Below are positions 1 to 5,032 of a DNA stretch of 5,032 bases, in pieces. Position numbers and translations under genes: made by a program. The stretch covers positions 1 through 5,032 of the forward strand of contig SUPR01000175.1 of NCBI GenBank assembly GCA_005191425.1. The letters run 5' to 3'. The stretch is from Candidatus Helarchaeota ASGARD archaeon Hel_GB_B. Its GTDB lineage: Archaea > Asgardarchaeota > Lokiarchaeia > Helarchaeales > HEL-GB-B. Positions within the stretch are counted from its first letter, which is position 1. The number at the start of each line of letters is the position of its first letter. The notes under the pieces were generated by a model that saw nothing but the letters and a program-made list of their open reading frames with translations, was not told the origin of the DNA and did no database searches.

Positions 1-768
1 ACCAAATGCTAAACAAACCCTTCCTAAATTCTTTTTATGATCTATTTGTTTATACAAATCATAAGCTTTTTTTAGAAATTCAATAGCACCCTCATCCTTT
101 GTCGCATCTAATAAGATACTCAAATACATCGAAAGAAGTGCAGCATCCTCAATATCATTTTTATCAAGTCTTTTTCTATACATTTCTCGAAGATCTGTTA
201 TTATTTTGTTAATATCTATCTTTTCTGCCTCTTCATCAAACATAGATGTAGCACTATAAATAAAATATTGATTGATTATACATAACCATTCAACACGTGA
301 ATTGTTAGATATAGAACTTTCTTTCATTAAACTTTTAGCTTTATTAAAATATTCATCCGCCTTATCAAAATCACCCCTCTCGATATACAACTCTCCTAAT
401 CTCTCATACTGATCTCCAATTAACTTTTTGAAACTATCCTTCGCTAATTCATTGATATCTTTGTCTAACTCTTGGAGTGACTGTTTCAATTTATTATCTT
501 TAATTTTACTTGCAGTCTTTACTTTCTTTTTACGACCTTTTAAAATATACTTTTTCTGAAAATTTGTAGCTTCTTTTAACCATTTTAAAGAATTATCAAT
601 ATCACTCTTTATAAAATAAATATCCATGATATTCCTTAAAATATTCCGCACTTCTTTTATATTATTTAATTTCTTATTAATATTATAGGATTTTGTAAAA
701 TACTCTAATGCCTTGTTGTATTTAACCTTTTTTAAAAAATCTTCCGCTAATTCATAATTTTCATCCAT
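1..768 (-). CDS. Tetratricopeptide-repeat (TPR) protein, 5' part (256 codons; C-terminus runs off the left edge of the window)
   Basis: Translated by hand; not in the ORF track because it has no stop inside the window. ATG at 768, upstream in-frame TAA at 796-798, open to position 1: MDENYELAEDFLKKVKYNKALEYFTKSYNI...GDQYERLGELYIERGDFDKADEYFNKAKSL...EGAIEFLKKAYDLYKQIDHKKNLGRVCLAFG. Several segments match the TPR consensus (LG..Y...GD...A..YF.KA). Confidence 0.88.
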   Translation of the reverse strand, partial: MDENYELAEDFLKKVKYNKALEYFTKSYNINKKLNNIKEVRNILRNIMDIYFIKSDIDNSLKWLKEATNFQKKYILKGRKKKVKTASKIKDNKLKQSLQELDKDINELAKDSFKKLIGDQYERLGELYIERGDFDKADEYFNKAKSLMKESSISNNSRVEWLCIINQYFIYSATSMFDEEAEKIDINKIITDLREMYRKRLDKNDIEDAALLSMYLSILLDATKDEGAIEFLKKAYDLYKQIDHKKNLGRVCLAFG

Positions 769-830
769 GTGTATATATTGAATTTTTACATTATTTTAAT
801 TTTTTGATCTATTTTTCCGATTCTATAAGT

Positions 831-990
831 TTTTACAAGAACTTTTGCCCGACAAAAATATTTAAATGATTTTATTTAGTTCTCTTTTCATTAAAATCTG
901 AAAAAATTTTTGTATTCATAGCTACTTTTTCTTATTTAAACATAATATATGGTGATTTTAAAAATGCAGTCTGAATCAGAATATCATTAT
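831..990 (+). repeat. Copy A of a ~160-bp diverged direct repeat (partner 4874-5032); probable left end of the IS remnant, including the transposase start
   Basis: Hand alignment to 4874-5032 with one gap gives 117/160 identities. The core 831-867 is 34/37 identical and contains an 18-bp perfect match, TTTGCCCGACAAAAATAT (844-861 = 4887-4904). A second well-conserved block, 931-970, is 33/40 identical. Similarity stops left of about 828-831. Confidence 0.85.
859..866 (-). promoter_or_regulatory. Candidate archaeal TATA box (TTTAAATA) for the TPR gene
   Basis: The minus strand reads AAAATCA-TTTAAATA, matching the TTTAWATA consensus with an A-rich BRE-like upstream stretch, about 90 bp upstream of ATG 768. 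The equivalent position in repeat copy B is also a TATA match. Such 8-mers are common in DNA this AT-rich. Confidence 0.4.
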
Positions 991-1773
991 AATTTAGAAT
1001 ATGAAGTGAATGGAATTATAGCATCTTTGGAAACCCCATTTTATATCCAAACTTTCCTTATAATTGTGATTCACACAATATTAAACGAGATGAATAGGAT
1101 ACTTCTGTACGATGCCATACTCAAAAATATACCTGTAAAAATTGTCACAAAACTTTTTATGCATATACCAGTGCTTTTTTCAAAAATCTAATTCCATTGA
1201 TTGGACACACTCTTAATAAATTCTTTAATAATAGGACTATCAATTTAAAATATATTAGTAAATTTTTTAATTGTTCTAATTCATATGCATCCACTATTAT
1301 AAAAGAAATAATAAAGGATGTCAGTGATTCAATTGAAGTAAAGTTTGCATATGGTTCACCCATTTCTAGTGATATTCTTTTAGTCGATGAGCCTTTTATT
1401 AAAATTAATAGACGTATTTAGTATCTCGTGGTGGCTTTAAACGAAGATAAACGTGTCATGGCCTGGGATTTAGTTAAAAATAGAGATTCTAAGACTATAT
1501 CACGGATACTAAAAGGGGCCATTTCAAGGATGTTTGATTATCCTAAAATAATAGTTATAGATGATTTTTCTACCTATAAAAAGGCTGTTAGACTACTGAA
1601 ATATAATTTGATAGATATTACATATACACAAGCCACTAAAAGGAAGTATCATAATAGATATTCACAAATATGAGAATGATAGATTAATAGTTACCGGTGT
1701 GGCTATTCTTAATGATATTTCTAAGTTTGAAAAAACATTTATAACAAGAATATCAAAAAATAAAGTCTGTTGA
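949..1773 (+). pseudogene. DDE transposase pseudogene with N-terminal Zn-ribbon (IS6/IS240-like, DDE_Tnp_IS240-type core)
   Basis: Reconstructed path: frame +1 start (ATG 949 or 964), a shift to frame +3 near 1005-1060 (NCDSHNIKRDE*DTSVRCHTQKYTCKNCHKTF, Zn-ribbon; TAG 1095-1097), an HTH-like helix region, then LLVDEPFIKINRRI*YLVVAL (first Asp 1386-1388; TAG 1419-1421), AWDLVKNRD, and PKIIVIDDFSTYKKA (second Asp 1560-1562). A shift to frame +1 near 1615-1625 gives HIHKPLKGSIIIDIHKYENDRLIVTGV, ending at TGA 1771-1773. VDE.FIK...YL..A, RD and P..I..D....Y..A are IS6-type hallmarks; no catalytic Glu segment is seen. Confidence 0.82.
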
Positions 1774-1786
1774 TTTACTTTTTCGA

Positions 1787-2842
1787 TTAATATAATTCCT
1801 CGATATTTTTAAGTAGTAAATCAGCTAATTTTTCGAATGCGACGTTAATATTTTCTCCTGTCAGGGCTGATGTTTCTAGGTAATTAATTTTAAGTGATTT
1901 ACTTAATTTATTTATATTATTTTTAGTAATATTTCTCTCATTTTTCAAGTCGCATTTATTTGCAAGTATCAATGCGATAATATTATCCCCCAAATACTTT
2001 TTAATATCAGCGACCCACTTTTCGATATTTTTAAATGAATCAATTCTGGTCAAATCAAAAACGAAAAAAACGCCATTGGCACCGTCATAGTAATATTTTC
2101 GCATTACTTTAAATTTATTTTGCCCACCGATATCCCAAATAATAAATCTAAAGAAATTACCTTTATAGACAAATTTTTTTTCAGTAATATTAACTCCTAG
2201 AGTTGGTATATATGTCCTTCTAAATGCTTGATTTGTATATCTTAATACTATTGAAGTTTTACCCGCCCCTGGATCACCCAGAAAAATTATTTTAAATTTG
2301 TATTCACCCAGGACATTTTCAAATTTTGAGATTTCTGGAAATTCTTCAGCTCCACTTAATAAAATTTCTTCATCTCTTAATTCTTTTAATGTTTGAATGA
2401 GTTCTATTTGCAAATTTTTAATTACGGTTTTAATTTTCTCGATATTTTCTTTTTTTTCTTCCAAATCTTTTATTTTATCAGCAGAATTAGAAATTATTTT
2501 TTGAAAATTTTTAATATATTTATAAAAAATCACATCATCTTCTTCATTAAAAATAATGGAAAGAGATGCTTCGGAATATCCACCTCTTTTTGTCGGGTCA
2601 TCAATGGAGATTCTTCTCGAAATACTCAACATATTCAATTCATTTAAGGGGAAAACACCAAAACTTTTTGTTTTATCATTAGAGAATTTAGATAATGATA
2701 ATATAGTTTTTATACTATATTTTTGGATAATTTCATTTGAAAGATCCGATGGTACCCAAGCTTTAGGAATTGGGCCTAATTTTTCATCAAAAATTGAGTA
2801 AATTATTCCTTTGATTATATCTTTAATTTGTCTGTTATTCAT
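1787..2842 (-). CDS. Rab-like small GTPase with an N-terminal longin/uDENN-like domain (Asgard-type fusion, 351 aa from ATG 2842)
   Basis: C-terminal Ras-superfamily domain: G1 GDPGAGKTS, G2 YIPTLGV, G3 WDIGGQ, G4 NKCD, G5 ETSAL. Rab-family-like motifs: LGVNI, RFIIW, KFKVMR, YYDGA, FVFDLT. No C-terminal cysteine. The ~160-aa N-terminal domain has IIYSIFDEKLGPIPKAWVP and DDPTKRGG..ASLSIIF, typical of longin/uDENN folds. The ORF track begins at TTG 2854; ATG 2842 is the more likely start. Confidence 0.93.
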   Translation of the reverse strand: MNNRQIKDIIKGIIYSIFDEKLGPIPKAWVPSDLSNEIIQKYSIKTILSLSKFSNDKTKSFGVFPLNELNMLSISRRISIDDPTKRGGYSEASLSIIFNEEDDVIFYKYIKNFQKIISNSADKIKDLEEKKENIEKIKTVIKNLQIELIQTLKELRDEEILLSGAEEFPEISKFENVLGEYKFKIIFLGDPGAGKTSIVLRYTNQAFRRTYIPTLGVNITEKKFVYKGNFFRFIIWDIGGQNKFKVMRKYYYDGANGVFFVFDLTRIDSFKNIEKWVADIKKYLGDNIIALILANKCDLKNERNITKNNINKLSKSLKINYLETSALTGENINVAFEKLADLLLKNIEELY

Positions 2843-3590
2843 ATATATACACAAGAATTAATAATAATTCCAAGATTTATATTATAAATTTAAATTTTCC
2901 TTTTTCTATAAATTAATTTAATTTAGCCATTAATTAAATAAATTATTTTTAAATATAAATGATCCTTATGAACAGATGTTCTCTGCCAATTTATTATTAT
3001 TTTGTTTAATTATAATACATATAATTTTAATTTTTTTAACATAAGAAATAACATTTTTAGTAATTTTTTTAATTTTTTAGATTAAATTTCTTCAGAATTG
3101 TTAATACTTATACAATTATTCGTTATTTTAAAATTGGAATTATTTAATTGTATTATTATTAATTTTGTTATTTGTACTTTATCTTTATAATTTATTCTGT
3201 TTTAAAATTTTGGAATAAAGATTTAATAATTTTCTAAGATATTGCAAAATATAAAATAATTGAATAAATAACTGGCAGAATTTTAGAAATAATTGATAAT
3301 AATCTTATTTATAAGGAAAAAAGAGGGTTTAAGGGGCAATAAAGGCATTTCTTATTACAATATTTGTTAGATATTTTTATTTTGATTTTTTAAATAAATT
3401 AGATTTTAAAATTTAATTGACTTTCATGAATGTTTTTTAAATTATATTAAAAAGAGGAAATTGTGAATAAAAATAATATAAAGTGTTGTTATTTGGCAAT
3501 TATAAAGATTAAAATAATATGGTTTTCATAATTAAATTTTCATCTATATTTTTTTATTTAACAATATATTGTGAGTATATTCAAATTAAA

Positions 3591-4823
3591 TTAATTATAT
3601 GAATTTTCGGTTAATATATTCAAAAATAATTCAGTCAGGTCAATCATTTTTAAATTTATTCCCAGATGGTCGATAGAATCATTCAAATTTCTATGGCAGA
3701 ATGGGCATGTAGAAACTAGAACATCAATTTCCATTTCTTTTGCTTCGTATATTCTGTTATTTGCCATTTCTAATGCTAATTCTGGGAATGCTTTTTTAAC
3801 ACCTCCACCAGCGCCGCAGCACAACGCATTTTCTCTAGAGCGCTTCATTTCCTTAAAATCTGAAATTGCGTTTAAAACATTTCTAGGTGGTTCATAAAAA
3901 TTACAATGTCTTCCAAGATGACATGGGTCGTGATAAGTTGTTTTTAAATTTAATTTTTTTTGTGGAAGTTTTTTATTTTTTATATAATCGCTAATAATTT
4001 CGGAGCTGTGATATATTTTAATATCTGATAGATCTTTATGGTAATCTTTTAAAAATGTCCTATAGCACCCAGCACAACTGGTTATGATTTTTTTAATTCC
4101 TAATCTTTTAAATTGCTCGATATTTTCTTGTTTAACTTGGTTAAATACTTTTAGATCTCCTGTTCGCTTTGCAACGCTACCGCAACATATTTCATTTTCG
4201 CCAAGAATTCCGAAATCAATTTCCAATTTTTGTAGAACTTGTGCTGTTGCTTTTGCAATATTTTGAGTTTTTAAACTTAATGCCGATGTACACCCTACAT
4301 AATATAAATATTCAACAGGTTCTTTGGATGCGTCTTTAATTTTAAAATCTAAATCTTTAGTCCATTCAAGTTTGGCGTGAGGCTCTCGATTATATGGATT
4401 TTTTAATTTTTGTAAAGCTTTATTCATTTCTTTATGCTCTTCTAAAGCGAACCCAGCTTCTACCAAGTCTGCTCGAAGTGATTCATATACTTTAACATTT
4501 TCCATCCATCTATGTGTAGGAAAATCGATATTTTGGTTATATGAATTATGACAGAATTCTTCACAAGCTCCACAAGTTGTACATTGGAAAAAGATATTTG
4601 CTAGATCTTGAGATAAATTTAATTCACCCCATAATAACCCTTTTAAGATAGTATTTTTTCCTCTTGAAAAATATGGTTCAAATTTTGGGGTATATTCTGT
4701 ATTATAGACGGGACAGACTCCAATTATATTTTTAGAAGGCCAAATTGGATTTCTACATTGTCCACAAGATACGCAGCTAAGAGCTGCTCCCTGCATTTTT
4801 TTTAAATTTTTTAATGATTCCAT
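3591..4823 (-). CDS. (Fe-S)-binding oxidoreductase subunit, GlpC/GlcF/HdrD-like: 2x[4Fe-4S] ferredoxin domain plus two CCG (cysteine-rich) domains
   Basis: C17xxC20xxC23-x13-C37P and C81xxC84xxC87xxxC91; CCG1 C178-x34-C213C214-x35-C250xxC253; CCG2 YHDPC301-x33-C335C336GAGGG-x-C373xxC376. Both CCG motifs keep all five Cys. ATG start with a Shine-Dalgarno sequence. The substrate cannot be assigned from sequence. Confidence 0.93.
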   Translation of the reverse strand: MESLKNLKKMQGAALSCVSCGQCRNPIWPSKNIIGVCPVYNTEYTPKFEPYFSRGKNTILKGLLWGELNLSQDLANIFFQCTTCGACEEFCHNSYNQNIDFPTHRWMENVKVYESLRADLVEAGFALEEHKEMNKALQKLKNPYNREPHAKLEWTKDLDFKIKDASKEPVEYLYYVGCTSALSLKTQNIAKATAQVLQKLEIDFGILGENEICCGSVAKRTGDLKVFNQVKQENIEQFKRLGIKKIITSCAGCYRTFLKDYHKDLSDIKIYHSSEIISDYIKNKKLPQKKLNLKTTYHDPCHLGRHCNFYEPPRNVLNAISDFKEMKRSRENALCCGAGGGVKKAFPELALEMANNRIYEAKEMEIDVLVSTCPFCHRNLNDSIDHLGINLKMIDLTELFLNILTENSYN

Positions 4824-4829
4824 AAAATT

Positions 4830-4834
4830 ACCTC
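4830..4834 (-). promoter_or_regulatory. Shine-Dalgarno sequence (GAGGT) of the Fe-S/CCG gene
   Basis: The minus strand reads TTGAGGTAATTTTATG: GAGGT lies 6 nt upstream of ATG 4823. Confidence 0.75.
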
Positions 4835-4901
4835 AATAATAATTTGCAAAATGAAATTTATTAGGACACGAGATTTTACAAAAACCTTTGCCCGACAAAA
4901 A

Positions 4902-4909
4902 TATATAAA
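4902..4909 (-). promoter_or_regulatory. Candidate archaeal TATA box (TTTATATA) for the Fe-S/CCG gene
   Basis: Consensus match about 80 bp upstream of ATG 4823, at the position equivalent to 859-866. An alternative TTATATAT with a purine-rich BRE-like run lies at 4913-4928. Confidence 0.45.
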
Positions 4910-4993
4910 TAAATATATAATTTTTTTTCTCCGACTAAATTAGAAAAGATTTTTTTATATCAAACTATTATTTTTATTTAATCATAATATGAG

Positions 4994-5032
4994 ATGATTT
5001 TAAAAATGTATTATAAATATAAATATTATTAT
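4994..5032 (+). pseudogene. Possible 5' start of a second, more decayed transposase copy (MILKMYYKYKYYY..., truncated by the window)
   Basis: Collinear and in frame with the first 13 codons after 952 of the transposase region; most differences are G/C in copy A versus A/T in copy B. Only 39 bp are visible. Confidence 0.4.

Follow-up and report, generated by a model that had tools for sequence, protein, structure and literature searches.

A Rab-like GTPase fused to a longin domain with a GP motif and a candidate arginine finger in a Helarchaeota archaeon

The DNA analysed here (the window) is a stretch of 5,032 nucleotides from Candidatus Helarchaeota archaeon Hel_GB_B (GenBank assembly GCA_005191425.1, contig SUPR01000175.1, positions 1 to 5,032 of the forward strand). 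Its minus strand carries a gene in which a longin domain, a 14-residue linker and a Rab-like GTPase domain follow one another in one uninterrupted Asgard open reading frame (ORF). The longin domain resembles those of eukaryotic GTPase-activating proteins (GAPs) of the FLCN/NPRL2/SMCR8 type and carries the two motifs of that class, GP and a conserved arginine in a later loop, so that it may be a built-in GAP. Residues are numbered from the ATG at 2842.

Gene, domains and motifs

The features of the gene were as follows, with the basis of each assignment in brackets:

1787-2842, minus strand: complete coding sequence of the longin-Rab-like GTPase, 351 aa, stop codon at 1787-1789 (ORF list and translation)
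2351-2815, minus strand: longin domain core, residues 10-164, with a long third helix (134-164) (AF2, VIA-align, Foldseek)
2771-2776, minus strand: GP motif, G23-P24 (G27-P28 in ORF-track numbering), at the β1-β2 turn or start of β2 (sequence, AF2, homologues)
2582-2599, minus strand: DPTKRG loop (82-88) between β4 and β5, with the candidate finger R86 (ORF-track R90) (sequence, AF2, conservation)
2309-2350, minus strand: linker, residues 165-178 (AEEFPEISKFENVL), with a conserved F-P pair (full-length AF2 model, alignment)
1790-2308, minus strand: Rab/Ras-like G domain, residues 179-351 (Pfam, Foldseek)
2255-2278, minus strand: P-loop GDPGAGKT (G1); family consensus GDPxVGKT, with G and GK invariant (sequence, alignment)
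2120-2134, minus strand: switch II DIGGQ with the catalytic Gln241; D237 and G240 invariant (sequence, alignment)
1949-1960, minus strand: NKCD (G4); N295, K296 and D298 invariant (sequence, alignment)
1862-1870, minus strand: SAL (G5) (sequence)

The minus-strand open frame at 1787-2854 comprises 355 codons without internal stops (ORF list). Within it the ATG at 2842 is the likely start codon, because the database copy of the protein (P0002) has 351 aa and homologues align from that methionine; this identical copy was recorded on six contigs, the three shown being from NCBI, ENA and JGI assemblies. An earlier note on this DNA, made from the letters alone, had counted from the TTG at 2854. The features that it quoted were recovered on the minus strand where it had placed them (FDEKLGP at 2771-2791, DPTKRG at 2582-2599, DIGGQ at 2120-2134 and the arginine codon AGA at 2585-2587); the arginine that it numbered R90 becomes R86 on counting from the likely start.

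The fold of the N-domain was modelled with AlphaFold2 (AF2) from a 70-row alignment, with a mean predicted local distance difference test score (pLDDT) of 93.1 and a predicted template modelling score (pTM) of 0.86. The modelled elements were β1 (10-19), β2 (23-30), α1 (36-53), β3 (61-66), β4 (71-81), β5 (89-99), α2 (100-129) and α3 (134-164); this β-β-α-β-β-β-α-α order with a five-stranded antiparallel sheet is the longin topology. The longin fold that the earlier note had proposed for the N-terminal half was thus modelled confidently over residues 10-164, and the two strands that it had predicted on either side of the arginine loop coincided with β4 (MLSISRRISI) and β5 (YSEASLSIIF). R86 lies in the loop between these strands, and GP opens β2.

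The class of the longin domain was assessed by structure comparison. With VIA-align the highest Z score, 19.3, was obtained for 8yqg, followed by FLCN in the active GAP complex (8dhb_J, 14.3), Lst4 (13.4), a chain of the C9orf72-SMCR8 complex (12.3) and chains of GATOR1 and the SEA complex (11-12.3); the generic longins of Ykt6, Sec22b, VAMP7 and TRAPP reached 9-10.5. Foldseek against the PDB likewise ranked 8yqg, the longin domain of a Lokiarchaeota Roadblock-Longin protein, first (E 5e-9), then chains of GATOR1 and the yeast SEA complex (E 3e-5 to 1e-4; GATOR1 chain 9o5a_H, 3e-5) and, at lower ranks, chains of FLCN and C9orf72/SMCR8 entries before Lst4 and DENND1. The longins of DENND1, a Rab guanine nucleotide exchange factor (GEF), were also among the structural matches (Z 10.2, Foldseek E 5e-3). 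The Asgard neighbours in the ESM Atlas, from Promethearchaeota, included a GTP-binding cluster of the same architecture with 274 members and a Heimdall cluster partly assigned to Pfam Folliculin; the eukaryotic neighbours were clusters of the Avl9, NPRL2, C9orf72 and FLCN/SMCR8 types. After 8yqg, the longins of FLCN, Lst4, C9orf72/SMCR8 and NPRL2/3 thus came ahead of generic ones, and these comparisons support a placement nearest to the FLCN/NPRL2/SMCR8-C9orf72/Avl9 class. Sequence identity of the eukaryotic GAP longins to the window longin was only 12-17% (Foldseek, VIA-align).

Pfam Folliculin (PF11704) matched 12 of 70 homologous N-domains at E ≤ 0.1. The curated cut-off of 23.3 bits was passed by two of them, P0119 (28.7) and P0090 (24.5), both phmmer-significant relatives of the window N-domain; the tie to Folliculin that these matches suggest for the window protein is transitive only.

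The G domain was matched by Pfam Ras (PF00071) at ORF residues 188-346 with E 1e-45. Its best solved matches were Rab8, Rab10, Rab1 and Rab3 (30-35% identity, target TM 0.85-0.90), and the top 50 Foldseek matches were all Rab1, 3, 4, 5, 6, 8, 10, 27 or 43 (28-35% identity). The G1-G5 motifs were intact, including the switch-I Thr, and DIGGQ was present, in agreement with the Rab-like GTPase with a switch-II Gln described in the earlier note. Conservation was assessed over 59 full-length fused homologues, one per 50%-identity cluster, and the switch-II Gln was kept in 53 of them. The protein ends in ...KNIEELY, without a C-terminal Cys of a geranylgeranylation motif, and Cys occurred within the last six residues in only 2 of the 59 relatives; the domain is for this reason called Rab-like and not Rab proper.

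The full-length AF2 model had a pLDDT of 90.9 and a pTM of 0.84 (0.86 for the N-domain alone). From a pTM of 0.84 for two equal-sized domains we infer a confidently placed cis contact between the longin and G domains in the model. A homodimer prediction for the full-length protein with GTP and Mg gave 0.00, the mark being 0.42, and is no evidence in either direction. The linker was modelled with a pLDDT of 62-70. At the end of helix 3 and in the linker, L155 was conserved in 48, E159 in 57, F168 in 47 and P169 in 44 of the 59 homologues; residues 155-169 (window about 2336-2380) include some of the most highly conserved positions of the N-terminal half, though the linker is a low-confidence region of the model, and may act as a hinge or as a docking motif for the two domains.

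Homologues, paralogues and genomic surroundings

The DxxxRG motif, whose spacing the earlier note had singled out, was conserved across the fused homologues: Arg was kept in 50 of 59, the following Gly in 49 and the Asp at -4 in 42, and GP was kept in 47. The Arg column ranked about 8th of the 175 N-domain columns, the mean column identity being 26%; by these counts the GP and Arg motifs are not chance resemblances. Both were present in 47 homologues, GP alone in none, Arg alone in 3 and neither in 9, so that all nine Arg-less copies also lacked GP. The P-loop, Thr, NKxD and SA motifs were intact in these nine proteins, which are therefore not decaying genes.

The Fisher p of 1.8e-8 for the joint loss of GP and Arg is inflated by relatedness among the homologues. 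The G-domain tree was poorly resolved (4 well-supported branches), with 6 losses on the best tree and only 2 forced by supported branches, and significance was out of reach of a sign test on the Arg/GP losses. One loss was unambiguous: P0057 lacks GP, Arg and the switch-II Gln (it reads DVAGI), compared with a gene 70 bp downstream that is 64% identical.

When the N-domain by itself was used as phmmer query against 1.8 billion cluster representatives, 114 proteins were returned at E ≤ 1e-3; most of them have 340-355 aa and a P-loop around residue 185, and so share the two-domain architecture. All 27 genomes sampled from two related families in the class of the window genome, 25 from one family and 2 from the other, gave strong matches (E < 1e-30, ORF length about 350 aa); one relative carries the NCBI name Helarchaeota. 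Other families of the phylum gave weaker matches only, to longins in other architectures. Among these families, longin profile matches were also noted inside giant open frames of 1,100-8,800 aa (genomes G119, G102, G139, G025 and others).

The window genome (3.5 Mb, 94% complete) encodes at least seven proteins with a longin of this type, distributed over five architectures:

Window gene and a gene on contig C74: longins fused to Rab-like GTPases
Contig C150: longin fused to an Arf-like GTPase
Contigs C108 and C139: longins with an N-terminal extension, both of which keep an Arg
Contig C156: longin-like protein without GP
Contig C19 (G000:C19:8491-9237, minus strand, locus L006): tandem longin-longin protein, 343-aa ORF

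In the tandem protein the first longin has GP and a Glu at the Arg position (...DIAEGK...), the second GP and ...KWARGKK...; from its motifs it looks like a single-chain version of a eukaryotic pair of non-catalytic and catalytic longins such as C9orf72-SMCR8. The same longin class was found fused to Arf/Rag-like GTPases elsewhere as well as in the window genome, and from this repeated fusion to GTPases a functional link is argued. A stand-alone longin of the same subfamily with GP and Arg exists (P0117). P0008 (191 aa) was considered as a natural split form and rejected, because it is a fusion that has been disrupted or cut short.

Longin-GTPase genes of the sister family are often arranged in tandem or separated by a few kb. 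Eight tandem or near-tandem pairs were inspected: both members have Arg in six of them, and in the other two Lys replaces it in the second copy (L024 2670-3728 and L026 717-1775, in genomes G150 and G132, with FKGG for RRGG and with GP and the G motifs kept). In three cases a gene without Arg and GP lies 67-198 bp upstream of an Arg-bearing paralogue:

Locus L023: 769-1806 and 1877-2923 (copies 64% identical, the Arg-less one also without the switch-II Gln, DVAGI)
Locus L020: 29-1084 and 1151-2119
Locus L017: 5001-6050 and 6248-7276

A rule that an Arg-less copy always stands beside an Arg-bearing one was rejected: of eight Arg-less genes, three have an Arg-bearing gene directly downstream and two have unrelated neighbours, the remaining three being uninformative (no DNA, a short contig, or a contig end after the gene).

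The window gene is monocistronic, with no GTPase or longin gene adjoining. Its surroundings were annotated as follows:

2843-3590: intergenic region upstream of the gene, 748 bp, 15% GC
3591-4823, minus strand: CCG/Fer4 gene, 410 aa, with two CCG domains and a 4Fe-4S dicluster domain (Pfam CCG, E 8.5e-33)
949-1673, plus strand: three short ORFs (74-81 aa) between the GTPase gene and a TPR gene

In the intergenic region neither an Rfam family nor an ORF of at least 50 aa was found, and the promoter of the gene presumably lies here; Rfam detected no RNA family anywhere in the window. On longer contigs a FAD_binding_4 gene precedes the 410-aa CCG gene, and the two are a GlcD/GlcF- or HdrD-like oxidoreductase pair unrelated to the longin-GTPase. 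On the downstream side are the TPR gene and fragments of IS240-type transposases; the ORF at 1428-1673 has a weak DDE_Tnp_IS240 match in public gene calls, and the stretch 949-1673 has the look of an insertion sequence that has decayed. Longer public contigs (L014 962-3039; L013 1-1630) carry, some 7 kb upstream of the gene, a Roadblock/LC7 gene, a 218-aa GTPase with only faint Ras/Arf matches, a second Roadblock/LC7 gene and a 185-aa gene. To judge by its gene content this cluster looks like an MglA/MglB-like unit, and it is not adjacent to the longin-GTPase gene. The DNA datasets carrying the sequence were hydrothermal-vent and marine-sediment metagenomes; no RNA datasets carrying it were listed.

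Proposed mechanism and alternative explanations

The reading favoured here, with a probability of roughly one half, is that an arginine-finger GAP is built into the protein and joined to its Rab-like GTPase. The longin domain would serve as a platform, probably dimeric like its closest solved relative 8yqg, which was deposited as a longin dimer. The GTP-bound G domain, most likely the protein's own (in cis or across the dimer), would dock on this platform; R86, in the β4-β5 loop and presumably next to the GP turn, would enter the nucleotide pocket as the arginine finger and complete catalysis together with Gln241 of the G domain, making the protein a self-limiting, timer-type switch.

Precedents for the individual steps are found in eukaryotes. 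SMCR8 Arg147 acts as an arginine finger on ARF1 (PMC8213707) and FLCN Arg164 on RagC (PMC9473554), and the intact G domain with Gln241 is as expected for the substrate of an Arg-only finger, for example SMCR8 on ARF1 (PMC8213707). In GAP longins GP is located at the loop before β2, or at its start, beside the arginine finger (PMC12290439), and the predicted arginine fingers of DENN-type GAPs lie between β4 and β5 of the longin subdomain (bioRxiv 10.64898/2026.01.05.697756).

Several results weigh against a built-in GAP. The Pfam scan gave no significant match in the first 175 residues (the best hint, C9orf72-like PF15019 at E 0.075, was below the cut-off), and the window protein itself thus falls short of the Pfam longin-GAP models (Folliculin PF11704, NPR2 PF06218 and C9orf72-like PF15019). 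PDB profile searches (A2, A3 and protein P0119) reached significance for 8yqg only. FLCN and NPRL2 were not among their matches, SMCR8 came up at no better than E 0.29 and in the GP region only, and the remaining matches were rejected as coiled-coil noise from helices 2-3. R86 is a candidate equivalent of FLCN R164, NPRL2 R78 or SMCR8 R147, matched through its loop position and the fold ranking rather than by residue-level superposition. The closest solved relative, 8yqg, has GP and no Arg at the R86 position. The switch-II Gln was kept in 8 of the 9 Arg-less and 45 of the 50 Arg-bearing copies, and by this comparison loss of Arg is not linked to loss of Gln in the same chain. A GAP tethered for good to its GTPase would, if not controlled in turn, hold the switch off most of the time. 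The longin and roadblock partners of GTPases are for the most part GEFs or passive platforms (PMC10933270), and assays of any Asgard longin, including Arg-dependent GTP hydrolysis, were not found in the literature.

The strongest of the alternatives, which we consider rather unlikely, makes the longin domain a platform for dimerisation or docking, or a regulator of the GEF type, in the manner of TRAPP, Mon1-Ccz1, DENND1 and the Rag roadblock domains; GP and Arg would then matter for folding, for the structure of the loop (an Asp82-Arg86 salt bridge, for instance) or for binding a partner rather than for catalysis. Such partnerships with GTPases are the commonest kind (PMC10933270), DENND1 longins occur among the structural matches, the dimer 8yqg has GP without Arg, and 9 of 59 fused homologues lack both motifs yet have an intact G domain, so that the fusion is viable without a finger. 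However, three independent structure searches ranked GAP-type longins above those of the GEF and SNARE types. GP marks GAP longins specifically and is missing from the longins of TRAPP, adaptins and DENND proteins (PMC12290439), and the joint loss of GP and Arg fits one functional site better than two unrelated structural roles.

The arginine finger might instead act on another small GTPase, either a stand-alone Rab-, Arf- or Rag-like protein or a paralogous fusion, with the fused G domain regulating or localising the GAP in a GTPase cascade; this we hold to be clearly unlikely. The eukaryotic AGAP proteins, which join a GTPase-like domain to an ArfGAP domain, resemble such an arrangement. Action in trans is possible because stand-alone GP/Arg longins exist (P0117), and the window genome offers many stand-alone Rab-, Arf- and Rag-like proteins beside its longins of five architectures. 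The frequent tandem or near-tandem arrangement in the sister family and the three Arg-less copies directly upstream of Arg-bearing ones also agree with it, as do the eukaryotic longin GAPs, which are heterodimers acting on a separate GTPase (PMC8213707). Nevertheless, no GTPase or longin gene lies beside the window gene, the full-length AF2 model points to a defined contact of the longin with the G domain of the same protein, and Arg in both copies of 6 of 8 inspected pairs argues that asymmetric catalytic/non-catalytic pairing is not the rule.

That the longin domain has no role in the nucleotide cycle and is an effector or adaptor module on a Rab-like switch (binding membrane or cargo, as in SNARE longins) is highly improbable: longin domains do have other roles in eukaryotes (PMC10933270; PMC4917890) and no experiment exists on any family member, but SNARE-type longins were weaker structural matches and the conserved residues are exactly those of the GAP-longin pocket.

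Beyond the built-in GAP itself, a wider proposal is put forward tentatively, as possible rather than probable. GP/Arg longins would already have partnered Rab-like (and Arf/Rag-like) GTPases in Asgard archaea, the fusion being a "Rosetta stone" for this partnership. The protein would be a self-timing switch, with the longin of one protomer supplying R86 to a G domain held on a longin dimer, and a one-gene forerunner of the FLCN, GATOR1 and C9orf72 GAP systems, and the Arg-less paralogues would represent a first step towards pairs of catalytic and non-catalytic longins.

Comparison with known systems

Longin-GTPase fusions were already known in Asgard archaea, as the earlier note had stated. 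Five longins fused to Arf-like GTPases were reported by Klinger et al. 2016 (as summarised in PMC4917890), and longin-GTPase architectures of Prometheoarchaeum MK-D1 were placed under the Rag/Arf-like class by Tran et al. 2024 (PMC10933270). Like the window protein, these fusions combine an N-terminal longin and a small GTPase in one polypeptide without a prenylation signal; where they are described, Arf-/Rag-like G domains are stressed and no arginine finger is discussed, whereas the G domain of the window protein is Rab/Ras-like.

The earlier note had left open whether the arginine-finger reading had been reported; for Asgard FLCN/SMCR8-type longins it has been, with GP and an arginine finger described and GAP activity and shared ancestry with eukaryotes suggested (Traffic 2025, PMC12290439). 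The window longin has the same two motifs in the same structural places. The 15 proteins of that study are mainly discussed for Heimdallarchaeia, and ArfR or Rag/Gtr partners are asked about, whereas in the window protein the candidate partner is covalently attached and Rab-like; the main text of the study contains neither "fused" nor "Rab-like" and uses "fusion" only for vesicle and gene fusion. No other paper combining Asgard, longin and arginine finger was found in the literature search. The fusion and the GP/Arg motif are thus both already described for Asgard archaea, and the window gene is one further member. Added by the family analysis are the fusion of a GP/Arg longin to Rab-like GTPases throughout an Asgard class and the loss of GP and Arg together.

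The nearest longin folds in eukaryotes belong to the GAP complexes FLCN-FNIP2 (acting on RagC/D), GATOR1 with NPRL2-NPRL3 (RagA/B) and SMCR8-C9orf72 (ARF1, more weakly RAB8A). They share with the window protein GP at the β1-β2 turn, Arg-Gly in a later loop and use of a GTPase with its own catalytic Gln. They differ in being large longin-DENN heterodimers, one subunit with the finger and one without, that act on a separate GTPase; the window protein is a bare longin of about 165 aa fused to the GTPase, with no DENN part and no partner gene.

The closest solved structure, 8yqg, the longin domain (a dimer) of a Lokiarchaeota Roadblock-Longin protein, superimposed on the window longin with a root-mean-square deviation of 2.5 Å over 145 residues at 22% identity, and was matched by the profiles A2 (E 4.7e-8) and A3 (8e-20). 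GP is shared; the loop of 8yqg reads ...NLKEPEK..., without Arg, and its longin is joined to a roadblock domain, not to a GTPase. The C108 and C139 proteins of the window genome have a similar layout, with an N-terminal extension, and keep an Arg. Papers describing the PDB entries 8yqg, 8yl2 and 9m28 were not found in the literature search.

The monomeric DENN GAPs of the Avl9 family also have a predicted finger between β4 and β5 (bioRxiv 10.64898/2026.01.05.697756). Avl9 additionally holds the GTPase with a cDENN subdomain, which the window protein lacks. The bacterial MglA-MglB system is comparable in that a prokaryotic, Ras-like small GTPase is regulated by a dimeric GAP domain of the roadblock/longin superfamily; MglB, however, is a roadblock domain on a separate protein, whereas the window protein has a fused longin. 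MglB supplies no arginine finger, because MglA has its own.

Set beside these systems, the window gene is one of many, and its value is that of a convenient and compact test case rather than of a discovery in itself. Two questions raised by the 2025 study (PMC12290439), whether longin GAP activity existed before eukaryotes and which GTPases partner the Asgard GP/Arg longins, could be approached simply with a protein that carries the candidate GAP domain and the candidate substrate together. If the built-in GAP reading is true, the arginine-finger mechanism of longin GAPs predates eukaryogenesis and was tied to Rab-like as well as to Rag/Arf-like switches.

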